From assembly GCA_045543615.1 (NCBI GenBank), contig JAZPXL010000007.1, forward strand, positions 56,465 through 120,464: a stretch of 64,000 bases of DNA. Direction: 5' to 3'. Made by a program: the position numbers and the translations under genes. Position 1 is the first letter of the stretch; each line of letters opens with the position of its first letter. Below are positions 3,518-52,125 of this stretch, piece after piece. The stretch is from Eubacteriales bacterium. Its GTDB lineage: Bacteria; Bacillota; Clostridia; Oscillospirales; CAG-272. A model generated the notes under the pieces. It worked only from the letters and a program-made list of their open reading frames with translations, did not search any database and had not been told where the DNA came from.

Positions 3518-5011
3518 ATGTTTCGCAGTATTTATGTCAAATATATCGTTACATTTATGGTTATAATAGTAATCAGCCTGGCTCTCCTTCTTGCAATTAT
3601 CGGAACGTTGCTTGGCGACTATTCCGAAACCTCAAAATATGAGGTTGTGGCATCTGCTTCGGACGCACTTGCTGATTATATCGAGTACAAGATACAAAAG
3701 CTTGGTATGAGTGACTTTTCGAGCTTTTGTCATCTGTTTGCCGATGATATAGATTGGCAGATTTCAACCGTCACCGATATATCAGCTTTCCCGATAACTA
3801 TAATGATTGCTGACAGCGATGGTAAGATACTGATCGCAAATCCTGCAGAGGATTGCGACTTTAAGGGCGGTACGCAAATTCCCAGAGCTATTATGGATGA
3901 CCTCAACAATGGAGTTGAGCTTAGTAGCTTTGAAAGCCTTGAGGGTATCTTCGATTCACCACACGTGGTCAGCGCAAAGCCCGTCAATATGAGAAATAAC
4001 TACGTTTGCGGAACGGTTTTTGTGTGTTGCGATAGCTCATCACTCCACTCGTTCTCAAGCCTGCTCATAAAGACAGTTGCTATCTCAAGCCTTTGGGTAA
4101 TGCTCGCTGCGCTTATTGCGATCTTCTTTATAAGCGAAAGAATAATAAGCCCACTCAAAGAGATGAGTATTGCAGCAAAGAGCTTCTCGCAAGGTAAGTT
4201 TGATGTCAGAGTCCCCGTTCTCGGAAATGACGAGGTGGCACAGCTTGCAGCTGCATTTAACAATATGGCGCAGAACCTTGAATCGCTTGACGAGATGAGA
4301 AATAACTTTATGTCGAGCGTATCTCACGATATGCGCACGCCGATGACTACGATTTCAGGCTTTATCGATTGCATCCTTGATGGAGCTATTCCTCCCGAAA
4401 AGCACGAGTATTATCTGAAGATTATTCGTGATGAGGTGCAGAGACTTTCAAGACTCGTTGCAACACTTCTTGATATTTCAAGAATTCAGGCAGGAGACAG
4501 AAAGTTTGTAATGGCACCGTTTGATATTTGCGAAATGGGACGCCAGGTGCTTATTTCCTTTGAGCAGAAGATAGACAAGAAAAAGCTTGAGGTCGAATTT
4601 ATTGTCGATGATGACAATATGTTTGTAGTAGGTGACCACGATGCAATATATCAGATTTATTATAATATCACAGACAACGCAGTAAAATTTGCCCGTGAGG
4701 GCGGCCTACTCAGACTCTCGATGACAACTGAAGACAAAAAGGTCAAAGTCTCTGTATATAACGAGGGAGACGGAATACCTTATGAGGATCAGCCATATAT
4801 CTTCGAGAGATTTTACAAGAGTGACAGAAGCCGTGGAAAAGATAAAACAGGCGTTGGTCTTGGAATGTTTATAACCAAGACGATAATTGAAGCACACGGC
4901 GAAACCATTACGCTTAAGAGTGAACCGGGAAGGGATTGTGAGTTCTGCTTCACATTACCACGCACGACAGATCCCAAAAAGTCTGCTCCCACGCGTGAAC
5001 AAAGAGATTAA
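3518..5011 (+). CDS. Sensor histidine kinase (2 TM, extracytoplasmic domain, HAMP, HisKA, HATPase_c)
   Basis: H-box SHDMRTPMT, N-box DNAVKFA, G-boxes DGIPYE / GVGLGM. Two hydrophobic segments flank a roughly 150-aa loop. Confidence 0.88.
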   Translation: MFRSIYVKYIVTFMVIIVISLALLLAIIGTLLGDYSETSKYEVVASASDALADYIEYKIQKLGMSDFSSFCHLFADDIDWQISTVTDISAFPITIMIADSDGKILIANPAEDCDFKGGTQIPRAIMDDLNNGVELSSFESLEGIFDSPHVVSAKPVNMRNNYVCGTVFVCCDSSSLHSFSSLLIKTVAISSLWVMLAALIAIFFISERIISPLKEMSIAAKSFSQGKFDVRVPVLGNDEVAQLAAAFNNMAQNLESLDEMRNNFMSSVSHDMRTPMTTISGFIDCILDGAIPPEKHEYYLKIIRDEVQRLSRLVATLLDISRIQAGDRKFVMAPFDICEMGRQVLISFEQKIDKKKLEVEFIVDDDNMFVVGDHDAIYQIYYNITDNAVKFAREGGLLRLSMTTEDKKVKVSVYNEGDGIPYEDQPYIFERFYKSDRSRGKDKTGVGLGMFITKTIIEAHGETITLKSEPGRDCEFCFTLPRTTDPKKSAPTREQRD

Positions 5012-5022
5012 GGTAATTAATT

Positions 5023-6387
5023 ATGGAAGAAAACAAGAATGAAATGCTTGAAGGCGTCGATGACGCTCCTTCTACTCAAAACACAGATACCGTACAGAGT
5101 GCGAGCGCGACTGAAAATGACGCACCTGCAGAAATAACAGAGGAAGCTGTCGCAGAGCCACAGGACACAGCTGATGCTCGCGAGCCGGCAGGTGTTACTG
5201 AAACAGAAGCAACCCCTCGACTTGCAGCAAAGCCTATTTGGAACTTTACCACTCAGGTGGCAGAGGACAGAGCAGAGCTTAAGAAGAGAGGCAGACGGGG
5301 TGCGCTCGTCTACGCAATAATTATGACAGCCCTGTTTGCCATCTGCTTTGCTACTCTTGCTGTGTTGCTTATATCGGGATACGGCGCAAATAATGGTGGA
5401 ACATATCCTCCGACAGACTATCTGCCAAATGCCGATGGAGTTTCTCTGTCTGCTCTTTATGAAGAACTGAACCCTTCCGTTGTAAGCGTTTCTTGCACGC
5501 TTGAAAACGGATCGAGTATTGGTAGTGGGTTTATTTATACTGAAAGTGGATACATCATCACAAATTATCACGTCATTGACGGTGCTGTGGACGTTGTTGT
5601 CTATCTCTCCGACGGCAGCGACTATAAGGCAGAGATCGTAGGCAGTGATGAGATATCGGATATCGCTGTTTTGCACATTAATGCAAAGTGGCTGAAGCCT
5701 GCAGTAATGGGCGATTCCGATGCACTTGTTGTTGGTCAGTCGGTTGTTGCGATTGGTACGCCTATATCCCTTGAATTTAGTGGTACATTTACTGACGGTA
5801 TTATCTCAGGACTTAACAGATATATAGAAATATATAATGAAGACGATCTTGTTGAGAAGAGTATGAATATGATTCAAACAAATACCATACTCAACCCCGG
5901 CAACTCAGGTGGTCCACTATTTACTCTTGCAGGTGAGGTCATCGGCATCAATAATATGAAGTATATTGGTGACGAAAACTCAGGCACACCGTTTGAGGGA
6001 GTCGGATTTGCGATTCCGATCAATGCGGCAATTGTTGTTGCGGACGAAATCATCGAGACAGGCTCATACTCGGGTAGCGGTGACGTTGCAGAGAAGGGCG
6101 TAAACCTCGGTATCGCTTGTGGTACGGTTGTTGAAGGTCAGTCCGTTACCCTTGGCAACCAGAGCTTTACAGCAGGCGCGACCGGAGTGCTCGTTTCCGA
6201 GGTTAAGACCGGCTATCCTGCAGAGGGTAAGCTCAAGGTGCGTGACATCATCACTCATATTGATGGAGAGGCTACTGAAACCTTTGAAGCTCTGAAAGAA
6301 ATACTTGTAACTCACAAATCGGGGGATACAATTGAGCTGACGGTTTTCCGTGATAACTCCTCACAAAAAGTAACAATTACTCTTTAA
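5023..6387 (+). CDS. HtrA/DegP-family serine protease with C-terminal PDZ domain
   Basis: Trypsin-like triad context (ITNYHVI, DIAVL, GNSGGPLF), one TM after an acidic N-terminal tail, PDZ-like C-terminus. Confidence 0.85.
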   Translation: MEENKNEMLEGVDDAPSTQNTDTVQSASATENDAPAEITEEAVAEPQDTADAREPAGVTETEATPRLAAKPIWNFTTQVAEDRAELKKRGRRGALVYAIIMTALFAICFATLAVLLISGYGANNGGTYPPTDYLPNADGVSLSALYEELNPSVVSVSCTLENGSSIGSGFIYTESGYIITNYHVIDGAVDVVVYLSDGSDYKAEIVGSDEISDIAVLHINAKWLKPAVMGDSDALVVGQSVVAIGTPISLEFSGTFTDGIISGLNRYIEIYNEDDLVEKSMNMIQTNTILNPGNSGGPLFTLAGEVIGINNMKYIGDENSGTPFEGVGFAIPINAAIVVADEIIETGSYSGSGDVAEKGVNLGIACGTVVEGQSVTLGNQSFTAGATGVLVSEVKTGYPAEGKLKVRDIITHIDGEATETFEALKEILVTHKSGDTIELTVFRDNSSQKVTITL

Positions 6388-6438: not shown

Positions 6439-8043
6439 TTAGCTGCGTCTGACCTTTGCCATAATTGAATCGTGAGAAAGACCGTATTTGTCCGCGATGT
6501 CACGGGCGTAGCTCTTGCCATCGGGCTTTGCACGGTAAATCTTAAATGAACGCTTACCCTCGTCAATTCCTGCAACAAGAGTGTCAATAGGAGCACCACC
6601 CTCGGCAGCGCACCTTGCATTGATATCGTCAATCATAGCAGATAGCTCGTGCAGGTGGGTTGAGAAGAGAGTGCGACATCTCGCACAAGAAAATCCTGCA
6701 AGAACCTCTGCGGCAATATATGATGCCTCATAAGAGCCTGTGGAAGAAAGAGATTCATCAAGAAGCACGAGCGAGTGCGAGGTTACTTTGTCGAAAATTT
6801 CACCAAGTCGGGCGCATTCCTCTCCAAGTCTACCCTTGTCAATTGTATCGTCAGCACCTGTCGGGAAGTGAGTAAAAATTGCGTCAACGGGCGAGATTGT
6901 GGCAGATTTGGCAGGAACAAATAGTCCAAGCTGCATCATAGCCTGAGCCATACCGAGAGCACAGGTAATAACCGACTTACCACCTCTGTTAGGACCTGAG
7001 AGAACATAGATTGTTGCCTTTTCATCGAAGATGAGGTCGTTTGTTATGATCTCGTCATCAATCTTAAGCGCAACTGCAGGGTTGTAAAGCTCAAGGGCAG
7101 AGAAAGCTCGGCTGTCCATCGGAGCGATGGTGGGTTCACAAAGTGAGCAACCCTTGTCCCTGAGCTGTTGCATAAGTCTTGTGCCCTTAATGAGAAATTC
7201 AATCTCAGGCATAAGGTTGAGCAGAAAGTCCGTGTTTTCGAGAACATAGGTCTGAACTATCTTCTTCCAAGAACGGAGGGAGGACTTGTATACCTCGTTT
7301 ATTGCTGTGTTGAATGCAAGGGAGAGAGCTGTTTTCTGACTCTCGGATTGTTTTTTGCCGAAAGGCACAAGGCTTGCAATACAGGTGTATTCATCATCCT
7401 TGAAATTAAGACGGAGAATCTTCTCAAGCACATCTCCCGAACGGAACGGCTCGGGATTGATTGAGAGTACGCCTGCAGAACAGGGGCGAAGCTGAGCGTC
7501 AAGGTTTACGCCCATAGTAACACTCTTGATTTCACGTACTCGCTTTGTAAGCTCACAAAGCTGTTCGTTTAGCTCTGCGTAATAATCGCTTTCTGCAAGC
7601 TCATTAATTCTGTCGCAGAGAATGGAAAAGGCCTTGCCCTTAAGATTGTCCCTGACCTCGTTAAGTCCGTCATCAAGCGTGTCAATACAAGAGATGTAAA
7701 GCTCGATCTCCGTGATGCTTGAAAGATAATCGTTTGGGTCACCACTATCAGCTTCAAGACGTCGAAGCTCCATAATATCTGAAAGAATGGGCAGAAGATT
7801 GTTAAGCATCTTTATGAGCGAGGGGTTTTCAAGCATATCCGAAAAGGTTTCCTGACGATAGCGAATTACATCGGTGTCGGCAGTAAAGTATTCGGAAAGA
7901 GAGCTGTTTTTCAGATCAAGAATATCAGGCATACCAAGCTCTTCAAGAGCAAAAAGCGAAATATCAGGTCTTCCACCGATTGCCATATGCTTTGAAAGCG
8001 ATTCGGCCGAAGGGTAGAGAAGTGAGAAATTTGTAAGATCCAA
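6439..8043 (-). CDS. MutS-related ATPase (MutS domain V only; no mismatch-binding or Smr domain)
   Basis: C-terminal MutS ATPase motifs GPNRGGKSV, LLDESLSSTG, STHLHEL. TTG start 8 nt after AAAGGAG. Confidence 0.7.
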   Translation of the reverse strand: MDLTNFSLLYPSAESLSKHMAIGGRPDISLFALEELGMPDILDLKNSSLSEYFTADTDVIRYRQETFSDMLENPSLIKMLNNLLPILSDIMELRRLEADSGDPNDYLSSITEIELYISCIDTLDDGLNEVRDNLKGKAFSILCDRINELAESDYYAELNEQLCELTKRVREIKSVTMGVNLDAQLRPCSAGVLSINPEPFRSGDVLEKILRLNFKDDEYTCIASLVPFGKKQSESQKTALSLAFNTAINEVYKSSLRSWKKIVQTYVLENTDFLLNLMPEIEFLIKGTRLMQQLRDKGCSLCEPTIAPMDSRAFSALELYNPAVALKIDDEIITNDLIFDEKATIYVLSGPNRGGKSVITCALGMAQAMMQLGLFVPAKSATISPVDAIFTHFPTGADDTIDKGRLGEECARLGEIFDKVTSHSLVLLDESLSSTGSYEASYIAAEVLAGFSCARCRTLFSTHLHELSAMIDDINARCAAEGGAPIDTLVAGIDEGKRSFKIYRAKPDGKSYARDIADKYGLSHDSIMAKVRRS

Positions 8044-8130: not shown

Positions 8131-9153
8131 TTAATTGTTGTCATCATCGACGTTTCCGATGTTCGACAGAGGATTTTTCGACATAGCTGCTTCGATATCG
8201 CTGTTTGAAACGTGGGTGTAAATCTGCGTAGTGTTGAGTTGCTCGTGACCAAGAATTTCCTGAAGGATGCGAACATCAACGCCACCCTTCTGATACATAA
8301 GGGTTGCAGCTGTGTGCCTTAGCTTGTGGACGGAAAAGCCACGGTTTCCAAGTCCTGATTCCTCAAGATACTTTTCGACTGTCCATTGAACAGTTCTGTT
8401 GTTGATTCTGAGTCCTCTGTTCGATAGGAAGAGAGCCGTTGTGTCAGCAGTTCCAAGCTTTTCGTCGTTACGGATGGGCAAATACTCTGCAAGAGCGTTT
8501 CGGCAAGCATCGTTCAGGTAGATTATTCGCTCCTTGTTGCCCTTACCAAGCACACGCAGGGAGCGCAGGTATTTGTCAATATCTCCAAGGTTGATCCCAA
8601 CAAGCTCCGACAGACGCATTCCACAGTTCAGAAAAAGAGTCATCATACAATAATTGCGTATGCGCATCTTCTCGGGAACACTTCTGTCTGCTCTCACGGT
8701 GTTTAGAAACAGAGTGGCTTCTTCAAGAGACATATGCCTTGGAAGAGACTTTTTCTTTTTTGGCGTTTCCACATTTGCAGAGGGATCATTTTCAAGAAGC
8801 ATCTTCGTTGCCGTGTAATATTTGAAAAATCCTTTTATAGCTGAGAGCTTTCTCGCTCTTGCGGCAGCGGCATTTTTTAGCTCACGCTCGCAGAAGAAAA
8901 GAAACTCGTATATATCTGAGGTCGAAACCGAACGCAGAAATTCAGCGTCAACGCAAGTAAGCGATATTTTTTCAAAATCCTCACTTGATGGATCAATGCT
9001 GTTTCTGTCAGCAATTATGAATCTAAAAAAGGTTCTCAGGTCGAGCATATATTCATCAACTGTCTTGGGCGAGCATCCCTTGATCGCAAGCTTGTATGAT
9101 GCGAAGTCACGAAGTAGTAGAGAATATTCACGAGGATTATATTCGGTTGACAT
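8131..9153 (-). CDS. Tyrosine recombinase, XerC/XerD-like
   Basis: SAM-like N-terminal domain plus catalytic HKLRHTAAT (HxxR) and GHEQLNTTQIYTH (Tyr). GGAGG RBS. Confidence 0.8.
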   Translation of the reverse strand: MSTEYNPREYSLLLRDFASYKLAIKGCSPKTVDEYMLDLRTFFRFIIADRNSIDPSSEDFEKISLTCVDAEFLRSVSTSDIYEFLFFCERELKNAAAARARKLSAIKGFFKYYTATKMLLENDPSANVETPKKKKSLPRHMSLEEATLFLNTVRADRSVPEKMRIRNYCMMTLFLNCGMRLSELVGINLGDIDKYLRSLRVLGKGNKERIIYLNDACRNALAEYLPIRNDEKLGTADTTALFLSNRGLRINNRTVQWTVEKYLEESGLGNRGFSVHKLRHTAATLMYQKGGVDVRILQEILGHEQLNTTQIYTHVSNSDIEAAMSKNPLSNIGNVDDDNN

Positions 9154-9349: not shown

Positions 9350-9964
9350 GTGATAAATTTTCTTAAAAATCATTCATACAGTGCCGTAAGGCTCTTCGTC
9401 ACACAGATAGTTATTTCTGTGTTTGGACTGGCACTTGTTATTGCGACAGGTCAGAACAATACTCTGCAGATTATCGTCAGCTGTGCCGCAGTTGCTTTTT
9501 ACCTATTCCTCATATACGCTGCGATGTGGGATATAGGCTCAAAGGATTGTGTCAACATTGAGACGGGTAAGATAGAAAGACGACCGCTTACAGGTCTGTT
9601 CATCTCGCTGTTTGCTAACATCCCCAATTTCATCCTCGCAATACTTATTACAATCGGAATGCTGTTTGCAGACGGTGGAGCTATCTCAAACCTTGGTGCA
9701 ACAACAAGCTCGATAGCTCTCTGGGTTCAGGGAATGTATGTCGGACTTATGACAATCGACGTCGGTGGCGCACCTCTCAACTCTTATTTCTGGATGTACT
9801 TTGTAATCATCATTCCTGCAGTAGCAGTTGCTACGCTTGCCTACTTCCTTGGAAGCCGTGGAATTCACGCAACACGAATTCTCATAGCAGATACTCCTGA
9901 GGAGGCAGAGATCAAGAGAGAGAAGAAGAAAGCAAGAAAAAAGAGACGTGACGAAGGAAATTAA
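9350..9964 (+). CDS. Multi-pass membrane protein of unknown function
   Basis: GTG start after AAAGGA. At least five hydrophobic segments and a K/R/E-rich C-terminal tail. Start chosen downstream of the promoter at 9266-9294. Confidence 0.5.
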   Translation: MINFLKNHSYSAVRLFVTQIVISVFGLALVIATGQNNTLQIIVSCAAVAFYLFLIYAAMWDIGSKDCVNIETGKIERRPLTGLFISLFANIPNFILAILITIGMLFADGGAISNLGATTSSIALWVQGMYVGLMTIDVGGAPLNSYFWMYFVIIIPAVAVATLAYFLGSRGIHATRILIADTPEEAEIKREKKKARKKRRDEGN

Positions 9965-9974
9965 GTGTGAAGAA

Positions 9975-10592
9975 ATGTCTTATGAACATCTGATCTACGA
10001 TTTTGACGGTACGATATCTGATACATACCCCTGCTTTACAAAGGCTTTGCTTCGCTTACTTGCAGACTTTTCGCTTGAGGACACATATGAGGGAGCTTAT
10101 AAAAAGCTCAAGGTATCCGTTGGCTACGCTCTCTCAAGATACGATTTGCCTGTTTCGATGAAGGAGGCTGATGAGATTTTCACTCGCTATCACCACGAGC
10201 TTGTGCACACTCTTCAGATGCCGTTTTCCGAGGCAGAGGAAATATTGCGATATGCAATAGAGAGAGGAAAGAAGAATTATCTTTATACCCATTCCGGCAA
10301 GATTGCAACAAGCTTGCTACAAAAATGGGGACTATATGATTATTTTGATTACATAATTGATGCAACGCAGGGCTTCCCACTAAAGCCTGCACCCGATGCG
10401 CTCAACCATCTCTGCAAAATCCGTTCAATAGATCCGAGTACGGCACTTATGATTGGCGACAGAGACATAGATACCGATTGTGGACGAGCTGCCGGTATGA
10501 GTGGATGCTTGTTTGACACAGAGCATTATTATGACGAATGTGTATGCGAACATCGCATAGATAATTTACTTCAGTTAAAAACAATAATCTAA
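9975..10592 (+). CDS. HAD-superfamily hydrolase (phosphoglycolate phosphatase-like, subfamily IA)
   Basis: Motif I IYDFDGTISDT and motif IV-like MIGDRDIDTD. Start is uncertain (GTG 9948 or ATG 9975). Confidence 0.7.
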   Translation: MSYEHLIYDFDGTISDTYPCFTKALLRLLADFSLEDTYEGAYKKLKVSVGYALSRYDLPVSMKEADEIFTRYHHELVHTLQMPFSEAEEILRYAIERGKKNYLYTHSGKIATSLLQKWGLYDYFDYIIDATQGFPLKPAPDALNHLCKIRSIDPSTALMIGDRDIDTDCGRAAGMSGCLFDTEHYYDECVCEHRIDNLLQLKTII

Positions 10593-10618
10593 TATATATT
10601 CGAGAAAGGACGACTACT

Positions 10619-11671
10619 ATGTCAGAAAAGATCACAGCGTTAAAAAGTGAATTTTTCGCAAGACTTGAGGCTGCAAGTACAATTGCAGCACTCGAAGAGC
10701 TTCGTGTTGAGTATCTCGGTAAAAAAGGAAGCGTGACCGAGCTGCTTAAGGCGATGAAGGGCCTTGGCCCTGAGGAAAAGAAGGAGTTTGGCCAGCTTGT
10801 CAACATCCTTAAAACAGAGCTTACAGAGGCAATCGCTGCCAAGGCTGAGGTTCTCAAGAGAGAAGAGATCGAACGTGAGGTGGCTTCTATGCCCGAGTTC
10901 GATGTTTCAATGCCTGCAGTTCTTGATAGAGGCTCATTCCACCCCATCACACTCGTACAGCGTGAATGCGAAGCAATTTTCCGTTCAATGGGCTTTACGG
11001 TCGAGGATTACTCCGAGATTGTAAGTGACTATGAATGCTTTGAGTCTCTCAATATACCCAAACACCATCCCGCACGCGATATGCAGGATACCTATTATCT
11101 TACAAACGGTCAGCTTCTAAAGTCCCAGACCTCTGCGGCTCAGAATGCAATTTATCACAAGTACAGAAAGGCACTCATCGAGGACGGAGTTCCGATCAAG
11201 GCAATATTCCCCGGCAGATGCTTCCGTAACGAAGCAACCGATGCTTGCCACGAAAATACATTCTTCCAGATGGAAGGCGTTATGGTTGATAAGAATATCT
11301 CCATTTCAAACCTTATCTTCTTTATGAAGACAATGCTCTCCGAGGTATTCCGGAAGGACATCAATGTTCGTCTTCGCCCCGGCTTCTTCCCGTTTGTAGA
11401 ACCCGGCTTTGAGCTTGACATCAGTTGTCTTATATGTGGTGGTGAGGGTTGTCCCTCCTGCAAGCACAGTGGCTGGCTTGAGCTTTGTCCCTGTGGTATG
11501 ATTCACCCCGAGGTACTTCGTGCAGGTGGTATTGATCCCGACGAATATACAGGCTTTGCGTTCGGTCTTGGTATGACAAGACTTGCTATGATGAAGTACG
11601 GTGTAAAGGATATCCGTGACCTCAATAGTGGCAGCCTGCGCACACTTTCTCAGTTCAGAGAAGATAAATAA
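10619..11671 (+). CDS. pheS: Phenylalanine--tRNA ligase alpha subunit
   Basis: Full-length 350 aa with class II motifs (HPARDMQDTYY, FPGRCFRNE, GFAFGLGMTRLAM). Confidence 0.95.
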   Translation: MSEKITALKSEFFARLEAASTIAALEELRVEYLGKKGSVTELLKAMKGLGPEEKKEFGQLVNILKTELTEAIAAKAEVLKREEIEREVASMPEFDVSMPAVLDRGSFHPITLVQRECEAIFRSMGFTVEDYSEIVSDYECFESLNIPKHHPARDMQDTYYLTNGQLLKSQTSAAQNAIYHKYRKALIEDGVPIKAIFPGRCFRNEATDACHENTFFQMEGVMVDKNISISNLIFFMKTMLSEVFRKDINVRLRPGFFPFVEPGFELDISCLICGGEGCPSCKHSGWLELCPCGMIHPEVLRAGGIDPDEYTGFAFGLGMTRLAMMKYGVKDIRDLNSGSLRTLSQFREDK

Positions 11672-11691
11672 AGAAAGGAAGGCTTACGAAA

Positions 11692-14055
11692 ATGTTTTTA
11701 TCTATGAATTGGATCGGCGATTTTGTTGATCTTTCGGGTCTTGACAAGCTTTCCCTTATCCATCGTTTCTCACTCTCAACAGCTGAGGTTGAAAACGAGA
11801 TATTTATGAAGGGTAGCGACATAAACGGTATAGTTGTTGCAGAAATCAAATCGGTAGAGGAGCATCCCTCCTCCAGAAAACTCCATCTTCTCAAGGTTGA
11901 TATTGGTGAGGATGAGCTTGTTGACGTTGTCTGCGGCGCACCCAATGTTTTTGTAGGTGCAAAAGTGCCTTTTGCAAAGCTTGGCGCAACTCTGGGCGAG
12001 ATTACCATAGCTCCCCGCCAGCTTGCAGGCTTTACCTCCAATGGTATGTGCTGTTCTGAAAAGGAGATCGGTATCAGCGACAACAATGACGGACTTATGA
12101 TTCTTGATCCCTCCATCCCGAACGGAACTGATATCAAGACAATATTCGACATTGATGATATCGTGTTTGAGGTTGACAATAAGTCGCTTACAAACCGTCC
12201 TGACCTTTGGGGACATTATGGCATCGCTCGTGAGTTTGCAGCCCTTACCGGCAGACCTCTGAAGCCCCTTGATGTTGCAGACCTTGACGAGTTTTCCTCA
12301 CTTCCTGCTGTCGATATGAAGATTGAGGACAAGCTCTGCCAGCGTTATTCCTGCCTCCAGGTAGAGAATATCAAGCGAACTGTAAGCCCTGTTAATATGA
12401 GAATTCGTCTCTATTATTGTGGCCTTCGTGCAATTAACTTCCTTGCTGATATAACAAACTACATTATGCTTGAGATGGGTCAGCCGATGCACGCATTCGA
12501 CTCCCGTAAGGTAGAAAAGCTTCGTATTAAGAGATTTGATAAGCCCTTTGTGTTTAAAACTCTTGATGGCGTTGATAGGAACATCGACGAAGATATGCTT
12601 ATGATCTGCAACGGTGATATTCCCGTATGTATTGCAGGCGTTATGGGTGGTCTTGACTCCGAAATCGTTGAGAGCACAACAAAGCTGACACTTGAGTGCG
12701 CAACCTTTGACGCTGTCTCCGTTCGCAAAACAACTGTTCGTCTTGCTCACAGAACCGATGCATCGGTAAGATATGAGAAATGCCTTGACCCTGAGATGAC
12801 AACAACAGCTATTGCAAGATTTGTAAAGCTTATGCGTGACGCAGATCCCGAGGTTGTGGTCGTTTCTTCGCTCACAGACGAGTACGCATATAAGTATCCG
12901 GAGATTACATTCTCATTTGATAAGGCTTTTGTTGACAGATACACAGGTATCGACATTCCGAGTACCCAGATAGTTGATACACTTTCGGCACTTGGCTTTG
13001 GTATCTCACTTGCAGATGATACATTTACTGTTACAGTTCCGTCTTGGAGAGCTACCAAGGACGTAACAATGAAAGCTGACATCATCGAGGAGATTACAAG
13101 AATTTACGGTTACGATAACTTCGATATCCATACTGCAAACGCACCCCTTTATCCAATTCGTGTTGCTGCAGAGAAGAGCGTCGAAGAGCAGATCAAGGAT
13201 CTCCTTGTAAAGCGTTTCTCACTCCACGAGCTTCACTCTTACATCTGGACATACAATGATGAATATGAGGCACTCGGAATCGAGGTTGAGGACAATATCA
13301 AGCTTGTAAATGCTACAAACCCCAATATCGAAACAATTCGTCGTTCCATAGTTCCCACACAGCTCTGTCAGGTTAAGTACAACACGACGTTTGCGTCCGA
13401 GTTCGGTGTGTTTGAAATTGGTAGAGTGGTTGACGGCGTGAACGCAGAGACAGGACTTTGCAACGAACAGAAGAAGCTTGCGATCACACTCTATTCAAAG
13501 AACAAGAGCGTAGAGGAGCTCTACTTAGAGCTTTGTGGCATCGTTGCAGTTATGGCAGACGATATTAAGCATCTTCCCGTTCTCTTTGCTAAGAAGGAAG
13601 CTACTCACTCCTACGAGCATCCTCGCAACCTCAACTCAATTGTTTGTGGTGGCACGCAGATCGGTGAGATTGGCGTAGTTTATCCCACAGTATCAAAGAA
13701 GATTGACAAGAAGGCTGCCATCGTCTTTGCAGAGATAGATGTTGTAACATTCGCAGAGCTTAAGAAGAGTGCTCTCGTTTATGATGAGCCCTCAAAGTAT
13801 CCTGAAATGGATATCGACCTTACTTTCATTTGCGATACCTACGCACCCATAGGTGCAGCCGTTGCAGAAAACGGCGGCGCACTTGTAAAGGGTATCCGTG
13901 TTGTTGATACCTATAAGGATGAATCCGGCAAGTCGATTACTGTTCGTATAACATTTGCAGATAAGACCAGAACTCTCACAAGAGATGAGGTTATGGCTAT
14001 CGCAGAGCGTGTTATTGCTGCACTTGCAACACAGGGCATAGCTCTTAAGGGCTAA
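11692..14055 (+). CDS. pheT: Phenylalanine--tRNA ligase beta subunit
   Basis: 787 aa with tRNA-binding N-terminus, B3/4, B5 and FDX-ACB-like C-terminus. Sits immediately downstream of pheS. Confidence 0.95.
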   Translation: MFLSMNWIGDFVDLSGLDKLSLIHRFSLSTAEVENEIFMKGSDINGIVVAEIKSVEEHPSSRKLHLLKVDIGEDELVDVVCGAPNVFVGAKVPFAKLGATLGEITIAPRQLAGFTSNGMCCSEKEIGISDNNDGLMILDPSIPNGTDIKTIFDIDDIVFEVDNKSLTNRPDLWGHYGIAREFAALTGRPLKPLDVADLDEFSSLPAVDMKIEDKLCQRYSCLQVENIKRTVSPVNMRIRLYYCGLRAINFLADITNYIMLEMGQPMHAFDSRKVEKLRIKRFDKPFVFKTLDGVDRNIDEDMLMICNGDIPVCIAGVMGGLDSEIVESTTKLTLECATFDAVSVRKTTVRLAHRTDASVRYEKCLDPEMTTTAIARFVKLMRDADPEVVVVSSLTDEYAYKYPEITFSFDKAFVDRYTGIDIPSTQIVDTLSALGFGISLADDTFTVTVPSWRATKDVTMKADIIEEITRIYGYDNFDIHTANAPLYPIRVAAEKSVEEQIKDLLVKRFSLHELHSYIWTYNDEYEALGIEVEDNIKLVNATNPNIETIRRSIVPTQLCQVKYNTTFASEFGVFEIGRVVDGVNAETGLCNEQKKLAITLYSKNKSVEELYLELCGIVAVMADDIKHLPVLFAKKEATHSYEHPRNLNSIVCGGTQIGEIGVVYPTVSKKIDKKAAIVFAEIDVVTFAELKKSALVYDEPSKYPEMDIDLTFICDTYAPIGAAVAENGGALVKGIRVVDTYKDESGKSITVRITFADKTRTLTRDEVMAIAERVIAALATQGIALKG

Positions 14056-20607: not shown

Positions 20608-20694
20608 TGGTGCCGGTAGCCGGAGTCGAACCGGCACGCCATCGCTGGCGGTGGATTTTGAGTCCACTACGTCTACCAATTCCATCATACCGGC
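20608..20694 (-). tRNA. tRNA-Leu (anticodon CAA), class II with long variable arm, CCA encoded
   Basis: Hand-folded: acceptor GCCGGTA/TACCGGC, anticodon stem GTGGA/TCCAC with loop CTCAAAA, variable arm GCCA-GCGA-TGGC, T arm GCCGG-TTCGACT-CCGGC, 3' ACCA. Confidence 0.9.
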
Positions 20695-45768: not shown

Positions 45769-45797
45769 TTGACTTATTTTGAAATCTATTATATAAT
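45769..45797 (+). promoter_or_regulatory. Promoter TTGACT-17-TATAAT of the TerB/ATPase/helicase operon
   Basis: Hexamers at 45769-45774 and 45792-45797. GGAGG RBS before the ATG at 45828. Confidence 0.65.
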
Positions 45798-45827
45798 AAT
45801 ATAATACAGAAATTTGGAGGTTGCAAA

Positions 45828-47516
45828 ATGATTGATGACAAGAAAAGCACAGACGCATACGCAGAGCACGATTCATTTTGGGATCTCGACTCTGTAATAC
45901 CAACAAGGCGCAGAATTACGCCGGCGTCAAAAGCTCATACTGAACCTGTCGAAATTGAGATTGAAGCACAAGAAGAAAGCAAATCGTCGATAAGTCCCCC
46001 TGAACCTATTTCAAAAAGAGAGACGGTCATACGCCGATTTGTGCGCACAGGTGGTGAGGACACGGAAAGCAGACGCCTGTGTGAGAGCGGATACAGTCCT
46101 GACATATCTCTTATTCATAAGGTACGAGTATACGGCTGGAGCGCGCCGTACAGGTATTACGAAAGCTTTGTTCGTATGGCTCGTTTTTATGATAATAAGA
46201 CTGCAGAACGTTGCGATGCTGTTGAGTTTTTTTCATATATTCCGCAATATTCTCAAATGAACAACCGTCAGCTTAGGTATTATTTGTATGTGAGAGAGCA
46301 AATCAAGCATGGAGTTTATCCCGATATTGATTACACTTATCTGCTGCTCTTTATTTATGAGATTATTAATCTTGCCGACGGCAAGTCCTATGAGTATTCG
46401 GTAGATCTGCTTACAAGGATCTGGATGAATTACAGACGGACATATGCAAGGCTTGACTCCCAACTGTCGGAATGGATATTTGACCTGTGCCTTATAGGAA
46501 ATGTAAAACCACCGTATAAGCTTATCGGAGATATAGTGGAAAAGCTTCCTGCAACGGCAGCTCTGCGTGAATTTTTTGTTGACGCATCGAGAGATTACGA
46601 CGGATATGCAGAACTTCTTATGAAGTATTGCTCAAATTACGATTACCGTAAGAGCAAATTCGCTGTTGCCGAAAATCTGCCACTATACGAAAAACACACA
46701 AAAGGCGTGCTCTCGTTTATTCTCTCAAAAAGCCAAGACCCTTCACATCCGTTTGACTTTTCGGGGCTGAGTTTCCAAGACAGCAAAACTACAAGAGACA
46801 GCTTTGTTGGTGCTTTGTGCTCGTCCAATATGAAAAAACGTATAGAGATTGAATACTGCTCGTTTTCTCATTCACACGAGCTGAGATTTGTGGTAACAGA
46901 CCTGCTTAAATATGCAGAAAACAGAATAAGAGCACACATAGGCGTAAAATCAAGACTCTCGTTTGGTTCACTCTCGCCAAAACTTAAGGCTCTTGCAGAT
47001 GAGTATTTCGACGCATATTTGCCGAAAAAAGCAATATTGGGCAGGATGGATGAAGAAATACCCGAATACGAGAAGTTATATGAGCCAAGAGAGAGCACCC
47101 TTTCATTCAGTGCAGCTGCGCTAATTGAGGAGAGCTCTTGGCAAACAACAGAACGTCTCGTTGATGCGTTTGATGGCGAAGCTGAAGATGAAACAGTACC
47201 TTTTGAAGTAGTTACACAGTTGCCAACAGAGCCCAACGATGAGCTCTCGGAAGATGATATGGTTGATGAGCTATTAAATAGCCTTTGCGATTACCAGCTT
47301 GAGTTTGTTTTGTTTGCAATACAGAACAAAGAAGAGGAGCAGAGGAGAATTGCGTCCGAAAGGTTTATGACGGCAGATGTAATTGCTGATCAAATCAACA
47401 CTCTGTCAGCTGATATTATAGGTGACATTGTTCTTGAAGAAGATGAGGATGGATTTTTAGTGCTTGATGATTATCTTGAACAGATCCATCGTGCTATAAC
47501 AAAAAGGAAAGGATGA
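45828..47516 (+). CDS. TerB-N / TerB-C domain protein (Shango SngA-like)
   Basis: FFSYIPQYSQMNNRQLRYYLYVREQIKHG...YLLLFIYEIIN (TerB-N-like), an acidic linker, then the C-terminal LEFVLFAIQNKEE...ADQINTLSADIIGDIVLEEDEDGFLVLDDY (TerB-C-like). No TM. Confidence 0.72.
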   Translation: MIDDKKSTDAYAEHDSFWDLDSVIPTRRRITPASKAHTEPVEIEIEAQEESKSSISPPEPISKRETVIRRFVRTGGEDTESRRLCESGYSPDISLIHKVRVYGWSAPYRYYESFVRMARFYDNKTAERCDAVEFFSYIPQYSQMNNRQLRYYLYVREQIKHGVYPDIDYTYLLLFIYEIINLADGKSYEYSVDLLTRIWMNYRRTYARLDSQLSEWIFDLCLIGNVKPPYKLIGDIVEKLPATAALREFFVDASRDYDGYAELLMKYCSNYDYRKSKFAVAENLPLYEKHTKGVLSFILSKSQDPSHPFDFSGLSFQDSKTTRDSFVGALCSSNMKKRIEIEYCSFSHSHELRFVVTDLLKYAENRIRAHIGVKSRLSFGSLSPKLKALADEYFDAYLPKKAILGRMDEEIPEYEKLYEPRESTLSFSAAALIEESSWQTTERLVDAFDGEAEDETVPFEVVTQLPTEPNDELSEDDMVDELLNSLCDYQLEFVLFAIQNKEEEQRRIASERFMTADVIADQINTLSADIIGDIVLEEDEDGFLVLDDYLEQIHRAITKRKG

Positions 47517-48865
47517 GAAAGATGGAGAACAGAAACAACTCAAGGATACCCAAAAGAATCCTGTCATCGCTGATTGCATCAATATCTGCAGGTGTTGTGC
47601 CAAGAGCCGGTGCACCTTATATAGCTATTGGCAGACAGGACGAGATCAACGCCTTGCTTTCGGATCTTGAGCTTATTAATGAGGGTGGTGGAAGTATGCG
47701 TTTCCTCATTGGCAGATACGGAAGTGGCAAGAGCTTTCTCATTCAGCTTATCAGAGGATATGCGCTTGAGAGGGATTTCCTGACAGCAGACTGCGACCTA
47801 TCGCCTGAGCGCAGGCTATATGGTAGTGGTGGTGGGGGTGTTGCAACATACCGTGAGCTTATGAAAAATCTTGCTTCCAAAGCGTCCCCCGACGGTGGAG
47901 CGTTACCGAAGATTATTTCCAAATGGGTTTATACTTTGCAGTCTGAGCTTGTTTCAGAAGGAATATCCCCGTCGTGTAGTGATTTTGGTTCTAAGCTTGA
48001 CTATAAAATTAATGAAGTGCTAAGAGAGATTGAGTTCCTTGTTGGAGGCTTTGATTTTGCTCGTGTAATCAGCGAATACTATAAAGCATCAATTTCCGGA
48101 AACGAAAACAGGATGGCTTCGTGTCTACGTTGGCTCAGAGGTGAGTATTCAACCAAAACAGAGGCAAGAAGAGAGCTTGGCTTTGATGTATCAGCAATAA
48201 TTGGTGATAACAACTGGTACGATTTTCTGAAGCTTTGGGCATCTCTTTCAAGCAAAATGGGATACAGAGGACTGGTTGTTTTCATTGACGAATGCGTAAA
48301 TCTCTATAAGATTCCACATAGAGTATCAAGAGAGAACAATTATGAAAAGATACTATCTATGTTCAACGATACTCTTCAAGGAAGGGCGGCACATCTTGGA
48401 CTTGTTCTTGGTGGAACACCACAGTTTCTTGAAGACCCACGAAGAGGTCTTTTCAGCTATGAGGCACTAAGGAGCAGGCTTTGCGACAGTAGGTTTAATA
48501 TTGAAGGATGCAAAAACTTTGTAGGCCCTGTTATAAGACTCGCAAGGCTTTCTGATGATGAGCTTCTTGCGCTTGTGGTTCGTGTAACGGCATTACATTC
48601 CCAAAACTATAATTGGAGCGCGAGAGTGAGCGAGGACGATCAGGTTGCGTTTGTAAAGATTTGTCTTGAGAGAGCCGGCGCAAACATTCTCATAACACCA
48701 AGAGAAATGCTCAGGGATTATATGACGGTACTGAATATACTGATGCAAAACCCGTCTGTAAGCTTTTCTGATATAGTCGGTACAACGGTTACGCTAAAAA
48801 CCGAAGAAGCGAGTGACGGTAATTCCAAAAGTGGCGAGTTTGACCTTGAGGATATAGAGTTTTAA
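47513..48865 (+). CDS. P-loop ATPase, DUF2791/BrxD-like (Shango ATPase-like)
   Basis: Walker A GRYGSGKS, Walker B GLVVFIDE. ATGA overlap with the upstream gene (alternative ATG at 47522). Confidence 0.72.
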   Translation: MRKMENRNNSRIPKRILSSLIASISAGVVPRAGAPYIAIGRQDEINALLSDLELINEGGGSMRFLIGRYGSGKSFLIQLIRGYALERDFLTADCDLSPERRLYGSGGGGVATYRELMKNLASKASPDGGALPKIISKWVYTLQSELVSEGISPSCSDFGSKLDYKINEVLREIEFLVGGFDFARVISEYYKASISGNENRMASCLRWLRGEYSTKTEARRELGFDVSAIIGDNNWYDFLKLWASLSSKMGYRGLVVFIDECVNLYKIPHRVSRENNYEKILSMFNDTLQGRAAHLGLVLGGTPQFLEDPRRGLFSYEALRSRLCDSRFNIEGCKNFVGPVIRLARLSDDELLALVVRVTALHSQNYNWSARVSEDDQVAFVKICLERAGANILITPREMLRDYMTVLNILMQNPSVSFSDIVGTTVTLKTEEASDGNSKSGEFDLEDIEF

Positions 48866-48874
48866 GGTGACAGG

Positions 48875-51127
48875 ATGAGCGAACAAGATAGAATATTTGA
48901 AAGATTTCCTGATTATATTAGGGAATATATTTATGAGCATTCGTGGGACTCACTTCGTTCGATACAGGTTATGGCAGCAAAATCGCTCTTTGAGAGCGAA
49001 AACAATCTGCTTTTGACCTCATCAACGGCTTCAGGAAAGACGGAAGCAGCTTTCTTTCCCATACTCTCAATGCTCGATGAGGATATGCCGCAAAGCATCG
49101 GGGTTTTGTATATAGCACCTCTCAAAAGCCTTATAAACGATCAGTTTGGCAGAATTGGTGAGTTGCTTGATATGTCCGGTATCCCCGTGACGCATTGGCA
49201 CGGAGATGTTGCGCAATCGCATAAAAAGAAACTGCTTGAAAATCCGAGAGGAATATTGCAAATAACACCTGAATCTCTTGAATCAATGTTGATGAATCGC
49301 TCAAACGATATTGTTCGTTTGTTCTACGACCTCCGTTTTGTAATCATTGATGAGATTCATACGCTAAGTGGTTCTGACAGAGGCAATCAGATAATATGTC
49401 AGCTTTGCAGACTTGGCAAGAAGATTGGACATCATCCAAGGAGAATAGGATTGTCGGCCACTATTGGAGACCCAAGGCTTGCTGCTGATTGGCTTTCTGC
49501 CGGTAGTGGACGGGAAACAGATATTCCCGAGGCTTCAAGCGAGAAGTTGCGCTGGCGTCTTGGAATGGAGCACTTCTTTCTTCAAAATCCAAGCTTTGAT
49601 CAATCGGGAAAAAGCGAGCAAGAGCCGCTTGTGCCTGATTGCAGAGAGGGTGGGGTAGCAGCAATTGATGCAGGCTACGAATATATTTACGATTGCGTAA
49701 GGGATAAAAAATCTCTTGTGTTTTCAAACTCAAGAGAAGAAACGGAATATGTTACTGCAACTCTCAGACAAATTGCAAAAAACAGGGGAGAGGCTGACAT
49801 CTTCTTAATTCATCACGGCAATCTCTCGGCATCACTAAGAGAAGAAGCAGAGCTTAAGATGAAAGATGATGATGTGCACGCTGTCACCTGCGCAACTGTT
49901 ACGATGGAGCTTGGTATTGATATTGGCAAGCTTGAGAGAGTTGTTCAGAACTCCTCGCCTAACTCAGTCTCAAGTCTGCTTCAAAGACTTGGACGGTCGG
50001 GTAGAAGAGGACAACCACCTGAAATGATGCTTGTGTTCAGGGAAGAAGATCCACTACCTAATACGCCACTGCCTCAACTGATCCCGTGGGAGCTTTTGAG
50101 AGCGATTGCAATAGTACAGCTATATATCGAAGAGAGGTTTATTGAGCCTCCCAGAATCAAAAAGCTTCCGTTCAGCTTGGCGTTCCATCAGACACTTAGT
50201 GTTCTTGCTTCAAGCGGAGAGCTAAAGCCAAAGGCACTTGCTGACATTGTTCTGTCACTTCCACCCCTTTCGGCCATCACAAAAGAGGATTATAAAACTC
50301 TTATAGTTTCGATGATAAAAAACGATTTTATCGAGATGACCGAGGAAAAAGGACTTATTGTCGGACTTGCAGGTGAGAAGCTGATTTCAAGCTTTAAGTT
50401 CTATGCAGTTTTCAAAGACAGCGAGGATTATACAGTCAGATGTGAATCTGACGAGATTGGCACTATAACTACTCCATCACCGATTGGGGACAGGTTTGCT
50501 CTTGCCGGTAGAGTGTGGGAGGTTGAAGAGCTTGATATTCCGAGAAAGCTGATTTACGTAAAAGCTGTTGAAGGTAAAATGGAAATCTCGTGGCCCGGTG
50601 ACTACGGCGAGATACACACAAAAATTCTTAAGCGAATGAGACGTGTTCTTGAAGAAGATACAGCATATCCATATCTAAAGCCAAACGCTGTGCACAGACT
50701 TGAAGTTGCAAGACATCTTGCGAGAAATACAGGAATGCTTGAGCATTCAATAGTTCATCTTGGTGGATACTCCTGGTGCGTTTTTCCTTGGCTCGGTACA
50801 AGAGCTTTCAGAACATTCAGAAAATATCTTGCTTTGCGTGGCGATGAGTTTAAGATCAGTGGCATTGAATATGAGGGCTGTTGCTTCATTACTTTCAAGA
50901 TGGAGAAGGGCAACGATTATTCACTTGCTTCAGGTCTTGCCCGTGGCGTAATGAGAGATGGTATAGACAGGCGTGCACTTGTCAAGCCGGGAGAGAATCC
51001 GGTGTTTGAAAAGTACGATGATCATATACCAACCGAGCTTCTTCAGAAGGCTTATATTGCAGATAAGCTTTCGCACGAAGAAGCCGAGGAACGAATACTC
51101 GAAATATTTTCAGAATATTGTGAATAA
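48875..51127 (+). CDS. SF2 DEAD/DEAH-box helicase, Lhr/BrxHI-like (Shango helicase-like)
   Basis: Motifs Q (RSIQ), I (STASGKT), II (DEIH), III (SAT) and VI (QRLGRSGRRG), plus a ~330-aa C-terminal extension. Confidence 0.85.
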   Translation: MSEQDRIFERFPDYIREYIYEHSWDSLRSIQVMAAKSLFESENNLLLTSSTASGKTEAAFFPILSMLDEDMPQSIGVLYIAPLKSLINDQFGRIGELLDMSGIPVTHWHGDVAQSHKKKLLENPRGILQITPESLESMLMNRSNDIVRLFYDLRFVIIDEIHTLSGSDRGNQIICQLCRLGKKIGHHPRRIGLSATIGDPRLAADWLSAGSGRETDIPEASSEKLRWRLGMEHFFLQNPSFDQSGKSEQEPLVPDCREGGVAAIDAGYEYIYDCVRDKKSLVFSNSREETEYVTATLRQIAKNRGEADIFLIHHGNLSASLREEAELKMKDDDVHAVTCATVTMELGIDIGKLERVVQNSSPNSVSSLLQRLGRSGRRGQPPEMMLVFREEDPLPNTPLPQLIPWELLRAIAIVQLYIEERFIEPPRIKKLPFSLAFHQTLSVLASSGELKPKALADIVLSLPPLSAITKEDYKTLIVSMIKNDFIEMTEEKGLIVGLAGEKLISSFKFYAVFKDSEDYTVRCESDEIGTITTPSPIGDRFALAGRVWEVEELDIPRKLIYVKAVEGKMEISWPGDYGEIHTKILKRMRRVLEEDTAYPYLKPNAVHRLEVARHLARNTGMLEHSIVHLGGYSWCVFPWLGTRAFRTFRKYLALRGDEFKISGIEYEGCCFITFKMEKGNDYSLASGLARGVMRDGIDRRALVKPGENPVFEKYDDHIPTELLQKAYIADKLSHEEAEERILEIFSEYCE

Positions 51128-51128
51128 G

Positions 51129-51165
51129 AAAACAGCCATAAGCAATTTTGCTTATGGCTGTTTTT
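51129..51165. terminator. Bidirectional rho-independent terminator (perfect 15-bp stem)
   Basis: aaaacagccataagc-aatttt-gcttatggctgtttt. Also contains the stop codon of the convergent small ORF. Confidence 0.85.
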
Positions 51166-51424
51166 GATAGCTGCGTGCAGTTATGTCATACAAAAGCATT
51201 CCACCAAAATATATCACAAAAGACATAAGTATCTGCTCAAGCATAGGTAAATAATAAAAATGAGCTCCATCTATATATCCACCGTCAACTGTGTTCAAGC
51301 TGATTATTATGTAAGCAAGAGAAATAATTGTAATGGTTGCTCCACTTTTGAAGAGAGTAATTGCTGCTTTTGGTATTTGACTTACTTTTTGAGCCAGGCT
51401 TGAAATAATAAGAGTTGTTTTCAT
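51152..51424 (-). CDS. Small (90 aa) two/three-TM membrane protein, unknown function
   Basis: ATG 6 nt after GGAGAA. Hydrophobic segments. Convergent with the helicase gene. Confidence 0.4.
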   Translation of the reverse strand: MKTTLIISSLAQKVSQIPKAAITLFKSGATITIISLAYIIISLNTVDGGYIDGAHFYYLPMLEQILMSFVIYFGGMLLYDITARSYQKQP

Positions 51425-51782
51425 TTTTTCTCCTGTTTTTAAAATAATCAAATGAATATTTTTAAGTTATGCAGAAAAATATGCAAAAAATCCTCCATAT
51501 AGCTTAATTGTAACAAGGAAAACGCAAGTTTTCAATGCTAAATATCTGGTAATTGGCTAAAGCGAGCTACGTAAATCCCGATTAAATTGCAATATAATCC
51601 ATCAATTTGCTGATTTTTGTTGTTTTGATGATTTCTTGGTAGCTCATATTAAATACAAATTGTCGTATTGAATGTCGCTCACAAGGGTTAAAAACTCAAA
51701 ACAACACAGATTCTTCGTCAAATTGTCCAATTAAATTTGGTTTTTTATAACTAAATCTTCATAGTAGGTGTCGAAATATCTG

Positions 51783-51828: not shown

Positions 51829-52125
51829 ATGAAATTATTTGACTTTACAAAGAACAACGAATGCCGCAGTATAATTCAAATTAAGGGAGACATAAGGAGC
51901 GTGCAAGGGGAGGACGTATATTATCGTCTATATGAAGTGAGAAAGGGAGCTATAAAAAGCTACGCAATTAATATCTGTTGTGGGCCTGAGAGCGAGATCT
52001 GCTCCTTTGGCACAGATAGGGCTGCAGTATTTGCAATTTATAGGAAGATTGTAAGAGGTGCCGTTACACCGACAACTCTGAAGGAGATAGCAGAAGATTA
52101 TTTCGCAGAAAAACGATACAGTTGA
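51829..52125 (+). CDS. Hypothetical 98-aa soluble protein
   Basis: AAAGGAGG RBS. No recognisable motif and no terminator before nrdR. Confidence 0.4.
   Translation: MKLFDFTKNNECRSIIQIKGDIRSVQGEDVYYRLYEVRKGAIKSYAINICCGPESEICSFGTDRAAVFAIYRKIVRGAVTPTTLKEIAEDYFAEKRYS

Follow-up and report, generated by a model that had tools for sequence, protein, structure and literature searches.

A Shango-type sngABC operon resident between ireB-ribF and nrdR in an uncultured gut Clostridia genome

What does a set of genes with the make-up of a phage defence system do among housekeeping genes, and how long has it been there? The question was raised by three adjacent genes at positions 45828-51127 of a 64,000-nucleotide stretch of DNA from Eubacteriales bacterium (assembly GCA_045543615.1, contig JAZPXL010000007.1, positions 56,465-120,464 of the forward strand; hereafter the window). 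The genes are predicted to encode a TerB-related protein, an ATPase and a helicase, which are named SngA, SngB and SngC below. We consider it likely that they form a complete, apparently functional and vertically inherited Shango operon, in which an ATPase would act as the loader of a helicase.

Identity of the operon and its proteins

The initial annotation of the window, made from the sequence alone, had proposed the composition of the Shango defence system for the trio. This was borne out by the PADLOC models, which matched nearly the full length of SngA (E = 8.9e-43, model positions 66-525 of 528), SngB (E = 5.4e-163, positions 3-424 of 439) and SngC (E = 4.6e-240, positions 5-714 of 720). 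The assignment was made from these model matches and the gene adjacency rather than from the system-calling programs PADLOC and DefenseFinder. Among the families expected from a profile search, TerB_N, TerB_C, BrxC_BrxD, DEAD and Helicase_C were found, whereas DEAD_assoc was not. The components that define Shango were all present, namely SngA, SngB with an intact P-loop and SngC with intact motifs, encoded by adjacent co-directional genes. Judged by its sequence, the trio represents the Shango system of earlier descriptions, present intact in the genome of an uncultured member of the gut Clostridia.

Shango was described by Millman et al. 2022 (preprint) and Johnson et al. 2023 (PMC10250203), and phage resistance was reported in these studies for the systems of P. 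aeruginosa PA14 and E. coli. The published phenotype consisted of a modest plaque reduction and a strong protection in liquid culture across a wide span of phage doses (PMC10250203). The validated systems share the three components with the present operon, including their order and approximate sizes, and are likewise compact, with overlapping or closely spaced genes. They belong to Proteobacteria (P. aeruginosa cDHS1 and E. coli islands) and are located in variable defence hotspots, whereas the present operon was fixed in the chromosome among housekeeping genes and co-diverged with them.

SngB matched the Pfam family BrxC_BrxD (formerly DUF2791) with an E value of 2.1e-153, in line with the resemblance to DUF2791/BrxD ATPases noted at the outset. 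Its Walker A (GRYGSGKS) and Walker B (FIDE) motifs were present and invariant among the homologues. No solved relative was found in a sequence search of the PDB. BrxD, the homologue of SngB in BREX (bacteriophage exclusion), has been classed as an ORC/Cdc6-type AAA+ ATPase (PMC12839542). By analogy, and with the clade taken from PMC12839542, SngB can be regarded as a BrxD-like ORC/Cdc6-clade AAA+ ATPase.

SngC matched DEAD (1e-26) and Helicase_C (7e-16) in Pfam. The superfamily 2 (SF2) motifs read from the open reading frame (ORF), Q (Q31), I (TASGKT), II (DEIH), III (SAT) and VI (QRLGRSGRRG), proved invariant among the homologues. Sequence matches in the PDB to MrfA/YprA (1.5e-28) and Lhr (4e-27) were restricted to the core (residues 15-385), whereas the best Foldseek match, to Lhr (5V9X, E = 8e-17), was aligned over the whole length, with a root-mean-square deviation of 15 Å and a model of mediocre quality (predicted local distance difference test score, pLDDT, of 64). 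In this model, the core was followed by a winged helix, a small barrel of five β-strands and a C-terminal domain of α+β type. The architecture described for BrxHI (PMC12839542) follows the same order: SF2 core, winged helix, β-barrel and Lhr-like C-terminal domain. Lhr-core and MrfA, the closest PDB matches of SngC by sequence and fold, likewise have a winged helix after the SF2 DExH core, along with additional C-terminal domains, but they do not co-occur with SngA and SngB partners. No match to DEAD_assoc or DUF1998 was found in Pfam at E <= 0.01, and the NCBIfam Lhr-type models scored far under their cutoffs (DEXH_lig_assoc, 204 bits against 850). The likeness to Lhr, claimed earlier from the long C-terminal extension, was supported at the level of the fold, through a mediocre model, while the expected DEAD_assoc domain was not detected. 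From its motifs and profile matches, SngC is predicted to be a DExH helicase of superfamily 2, similar in type to Lhr and BrxHI.

The TerB-N and TerB-C regions that had been recognised in SngA both scored above the Pfam gathering thresholds: TerB_N at residues 106-224 (E = 1.8e-10, 41.4 bits, cutoff 25) and TerB_C at residues 428-553 (E = 1.5e-6, 28.9 bits, cutoff 26.3). At E <= 0.01, these two were the sole Pfam domains reported, with no match to TerB (PF05099) or TerD. In terms of its domains, SngA is thus better called "TerB-associated" than a TerB protein. An acidic linker was found at about residues 451-474, and the absence of a transmembrane segment agreed with a maximum Kyte-Doolittle mean over 19 residues of 1.19. 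The AlphaFold2 model of SngA (mean pLDDT 82) was mostly helical, with disordered stretches at residues 28-76 and 451-471, and ended in a unit of three helices plus a hairpin, which formed the winged-helix-like end of TerB_C. Weak local Foldseek matches of this unit to LysR/MarR winged helices were obtained (E > 0.2). No significant full-length PDB match to the model was found by Foldseek, and the PDB search with the sequence of SngA returned nothing.

The best conserved part of SngA was located outside the named domains. Residues of about 311-400 (window 46758-47027), which no Pfam model matched, showed a mean identity of 61%, whereas the regions of TerB_N and TerB_C reached 34-48%. Within this part, C331, R353, K361, E364, N365 and R368 were invariant, and C344 and H350 were nearly so. 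The region may thus serve in interactions or bind a metal. The termini of SngA evolved fast around the conserved centre, and SngA as a whole diverged as fast as the fastest of the flanking genes.

The positions and sizes of the three genes were reproduced, and the features of the operon are as follows.

45769-45797, plus strand: predicted sigma-A-type promoter, TTGACT-17-TATAAT, matching 11 of 12 consensus positions
45828-47516, plus strand: sngA, 562 amino acids
47513-48865, plus strand: sngB, 450 amino acids
48875-51127, plus strand: sngC, 750 amino acids
51129-51164, both strands: predicted intrinsic terminator hairpin for both directions, which the operon shares with the small convergent gene at 51152-51451 on the minus strand

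The 4-nt ATGA overlap of sngA and sngB (47513-47516) and the 9-nt gap between sngB and sngC (48866-48874) could be read directly in the sequence. The overlap suggests translational coupling, by which the three proteins would be made together. A motif scan found 23 promoter-like sites of this level, compared with 17 +/- 4 in shuffled sequences, so a single match of this kind was not above chance in AT-rich DNA. The weight of the near-consensus promoter came instead from its conservation, because the TTGAC of the -35 element and the -10 block were invariant before sngA in the alignment with four other lineages (L001, L005, L006 and L175). In L175, a different gene lay upstream of sngA, yet both elements were kept. 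No LexA box (GAAC-N4-GTTC) was seen upstream of sngA on inspection by eye.

At the other end, the perfect 15-bp stem described earlier was present (51129-51143 and 51150-51164, with a 6-nt loop). Its folding energy was -25.8 kcal/mol (z = -6.5), and none of 200 shuffled sequences folded as well. A simple terminator scan did not report this hairpin because the T-run forms part of the stem. The hairpin overlapped the 3' end of the convergent 99-amino-acid gene, and hairpins of differing sequence were found at the same place after sngC in L001, L005 and L008. We infer that transcription of the operon starts at a conserved, near-consensus promoter of its own and ends at the strong hairpin.

Inheritance of the locus

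To the left of the trio lay dacB, ribF and ireB, and to the right a small gene on the minus strand, a small DUF6514-like gene on the plus strand and nrdR. The housekeeping flanks had thus been named correctly, but nrdR was not the immediate neighbour, since two small genes were in between. The same ireB-ribF ... nrdR interval contained the trio in at least 11 divergent Clostridia lineages, in which the GC content of the locus ranged from 0.43 to 0.55 and the identity of RibF fell as low as 37%. This context was seen in the loci L001-L011, L014, L097, L101, L102, L119, L172 and L175, and even SngA homologues of only 37-52% identity occupied it. Further loci came from scanning GTDB with an alignment of RibF and metagenomes with an alignment of SngB, and from look-ups. 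These steps added L011, L014, L097, L101, L102, L119, L094/L109/L172 and L175, among which L094/L109/L172 show the right flank only. A GTDB scan with the single RibF protein as the query found no relative, whereas the alignment query succeeded.

The history of the trio followed that of its flanks. In neighbour-joining analysis of nine lineages, the tree of IreB, RibF and DacB was identical to that of SngA, SngB and SngC (Robinson-Foulds distance of 0, all splits with bootstrap values of at least 92%), with 135,135 unrooted trees being possible for nine taxa. Between the window and L001, the identity was 50-90% for the flanking proteins and 50%, 80% and 81% for SngA, SngB and SngC, respectively. 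For the closest pair of lineages, L001 and L011, the ratio of non-synonymous to synonymous divergence (dN/dS) was 0.040 for SngA, 0.021 for SngB and 0.019 for SngC, and 0.055 for RibF, 0.037 for DacB and 0.009 for RadA in the flanks. The synonymous divergence (dS) of the same pair spanned 0.80-0.87 across the trio, which is comparable to the 0.99-1.64 of the flanking genes. The GC content of the trio, overall and at third codon positions, equalled that of the flanks. No terminal repeats or target-site duplications were found at the ends of the cassette beyond 9 nt of AT-rich sequence, and no integrase, transposase, tRNA target or other mobility gene was present at the locus.

The comparison of the interval in relatives, which had been suggested as a check, revealed the same position in most of them but not a strictly core locus. 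In L013, a GTDB species, ireB was directly beside the small genes and nrdR, with a gap of 105 bp, an intact ireB promoter region and no trio. The flanking proteins placed L013 inside the trio-bearing group (99.5%), and the empty site is most simply a deletion of the trio. A clean empty site in a lineage nested among carriers implies that the trio was dispensable and was lost there.

The trio had at first been described as an inserted accessory module. Of the marks of an accessory or mobile island, neither mobility genes or repeats at the borders nor a deviating composition were found, and variable presence was limited to the one nested lineage with an empty site; the shared interval and the congruent trees are contrary to such a module, and on no recent time scale is an accessory insertion tenable. 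On the comparative evidence, the operon is best described, for this clade of uncultured Clostridia from gut and rumen, as an old resident of the ireB-ribF/nrdR interval that has been passed down vertically, constrained by strong purifying selection and with occasional losses.

Proposed mode of action and alternative readings

SngA, SngB and SngC would be made together and probably co-translated into a complex. SngB, as a putative ORC/Cdc6-type AAA+ ATPase, would bind DNA and load or activate SngC; this idea comes from the proposal of helicase loading by the homologous type 2 BREX pair BrxD-BrxHI, whose genes are tightly linked (PMC12839542). SngC would act as an Lhr-type 3'-to-5' translocase or helicase with extra DNA-binding modules. 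SngA, in which no enzymatic domain could be recognised, is the probable scaffold, or a sensor or tether that sets when or where SngB and SngC engage, possibly through the winged-helix-like end of TerB_C. Phage replication would then be blocked as invading phage DNA, or its replication intermediates, is unwound or stripped at the expense of ATP. Since neither a nuclease nor a toxin effector is encoded in the operon and the published protection of liquid cultures extends over widely differing phage doses (PMC10250203), abortive infection appears less probable than direct interference.

Type 2 BREX (Pgl) offers a close parallel for the SngB-SngC pair, since the homologues BrxD and BrxHI are also tightly linked neighbours. 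The partners PglZ, PglX, BrxC and PglW and the methyltransferase of that system are not present near the operon, and SngA stands in their place. Without a methyltransferase, and unlike type 2 BREX, the operon would have no obvious epigenetic marking of self and non-self.

Several points weigh against a functional defence operon with this mode of action. Between deep lineages, SngB and SngC were more conserved than NrdR (70-72% versus 64-67%); such conservation, together with fixation among housekeeping genes, is atypical of defence genes, and a housekeeping role would fit these features equally well. The deep nodes of the wider SngB-SngC tree had bootstrap values of 12-49, and trios with about 70% SngB identity were found on other Clostridia-like contigs in different chromosomal settings, which were also of the housekeeping kind; some ancient relocation or transfer is therefore possible. 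The winged-helix-turn-helix assignment in SngA comes from the weak local matches given above, and the SngC model was mediocre. In the literature searched, later papers still call the mechanism of Shango unknown, and the phage-resistance experiments on Shango cover systems of Proteobacteria.

The strongest of the alternatives is that SngABC was domesticated in this clade and serves the maintenance of the cell's own genome (for example by acting on stalled forks, R-loops or damaged DNA as Lhr or MrfA do), instead of or besides defence. The fixed position and the identity of the trio tree with the flank tree favour such a role, as do the dN/dS values of 0.02-0.04, which resemble those of housekeeping genes, the conservation of SngB and SngC beyond that of NrdR and the conserved near-consensus promoter. 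The non-syntenic homologues were flanked by housekeeping genes and not by mobile elements or defence islands, and MrfA and Lhr, the solved structures closest to SngC, are helicases of DNA repair. The neighbourhood was also rich in genes of DNA metabolism (radA, radC, nrdR and lexA), but this argument is weak because the same neighbours were present at the empty site. On the other side, the Shango models far outscored the repair-helicase models (797 bits for SngC, compared with the 204 bits of DEXH_lig_assoc). The family has experimentally confirmed anti-phage activity and is widely plasmid-borne: SngB homologues were found on 697 plasmids, 542 of them conjugative and mostly from Klebsiella and Salmonella, where they adjoined genes for a TerB_N protein and a helicase. 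In addition, a nested lineage lost the trio cleanly, which marks it as dispensable, and SngA evolved as fast as the fastest flanking genes. Domestication is considered unlikely. Its fullest form, in which Shango would here be a stably inherited, constitutively expressed part of core DNA metabolism and SngB would load SngC on host replication or repair intermediates, is given the same low probability. If true, it would mean that a defence system had turned into a housekeeping one, or that Shango is basically a system for genome integrity, with the restriction of phages as a side effect.

It is less probable still, and in our view very unlikely, that the ireB-nrdR interval is an integration hotspot which captured Shango several times independently, so that the trio would be an ordinary mobile accessory island. 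Other variable insertions in the interval (a 1092-amino-acid ORF in L008 and L010; a MatE transporter and a helix-turn-helix (HTH) regulator plus LGT in L175), the one lineage with an empty site, the cassette's own promoter and terminator and the mobility of Shango elsewhere would all suit a hotspot. However, the sampled occupied sites all held Shango and never another defence system, and the empty-site lineage was nested among carriers. In addition, the trio tree equalled the flank tree, out of 135,135 possible unrooted ones, and the dS of the trio was comparable to that of the flanks. Neither an integrase or transposase nor a tRNA target or direct repeat was found, and the composition did not deviate. 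The weakest reading, in which the trio would be a remnant or satellite of type 2 BREX/Pgl or a part of a Ter tellurite-stress operon, was prompted by the matches of SngB to BrxD (E = 3.1e-46) and of SngC to BrxHI (E = 3.3e-122) and by the TerB-derived domain names in SngA, but was rejected with hardly any probability left to it, as the Sng models scored higher (541 against 156 bits for SngB and 797 against 407 bits for SngC), NCBIfam BREX_BrxD stayed at 154.9 bits under its cutoff of 350, no PglZ, PglX, BrxC or PglW gene was nearby (the flanks being ireB, ribF, dacB, nrdR and pyk) and SngA gave no TerB or TerD match at E <= 0.01.

A vertically inherited Shango defence operon thus remains the preferred reading. 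Shango was already known as a validated defence system without an obvious effector, and the locus is not of a new kind. What it newly contributes is modest: the long-term fixation in the chromosome of a Shango branch that evolves like a housekeeping operon. As comparative material, the locus marks residues of about 311-400 of SngA, along with SngB and SngC as a pair, as the invariant machinery and the termini of SngA as the variable parts. It also raises the question of whether long-resident defence systems double as genome-maintenance factors.

Neighbouring genes, variant loci and the wider family

The two small genes between sngC and nrdR encode a 99-amino-acid hydrophobic protein (51152-51451, minus strand) and a 98-amino-acid DUF6514-like protein (51829-52125, plus strand). 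Both were kept in most of the syntenic loci and at the empty site in L013, which indicates that they belong with nrdR and not with Shango.

Other genes were found within the trio in some loci. A gene for a GDSL-like lipase/acylhydrolase was located between sngA and sngB in L014 (6174-7022, minus strand), and an ORF resembling glycoside hydrolase family 39 (GH39) between sngB and sngC in L091 (11471-12799, plus strand), with the same gene in L093. The 1092-amino-acid ORF of L008 (6539-9817, minus strand) and L010 (6536-9820, minus strand) gave a weak pectate-lyase-like match, and the insertions of L175 were located at 4240-5697 on the plus strand (MatE transporter) and at 11390-13243 (HTH regulator plus LGT). 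The ireB-nrdR site appears to be permissive for insertions. In L049, a GTDB metagenome-assembled genome, a SngA-like gene of 40% identity (9814-11303), cut by the contig end, lay about 9 kb away on the other side of ribF, a position that differs from the syntenic one.

In the wider family, SngA had 1717 representatives (clusters at 50% identity) at E <= 1e-3. A Shango example on a plasmid of Clostridium estertheticum lay beside a relaxase and an IS110 element. A DUF5131 gene was located about 4 kb downstream of Shango on this plasmid, and such a gene also followed nrdR in several syntenic loci, perhaps by coincidence; the DUF5131 genes noted were those of L006 (17227-17943), L172 (13106-13864), L175 (14907-15632) and L178 (14526-15245). 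No SngB homologue was found in the phage collection, and one partial match (L171) was obtained in the scan of viral contigs, so Shango was not phage-borne in those collections.

Among roughly 30 ORFs of the window that were scanned, none belonged to a sporulation-specific Pfam family. Rfam found one tRNA gene (20611-20694, minus strand, 52 bits) and nothing else in the window. A Xer-type tyrosine recombinase (Phage_integrase plus a SAM-like N domain) was encoded at 8131-9153 on the minus strand, and a MutS2-like protein with the MutS_V domain only at 6439-8043 on the same strand. These three genes were distant from the operon and seem to be ordinary genes of the chromosome.

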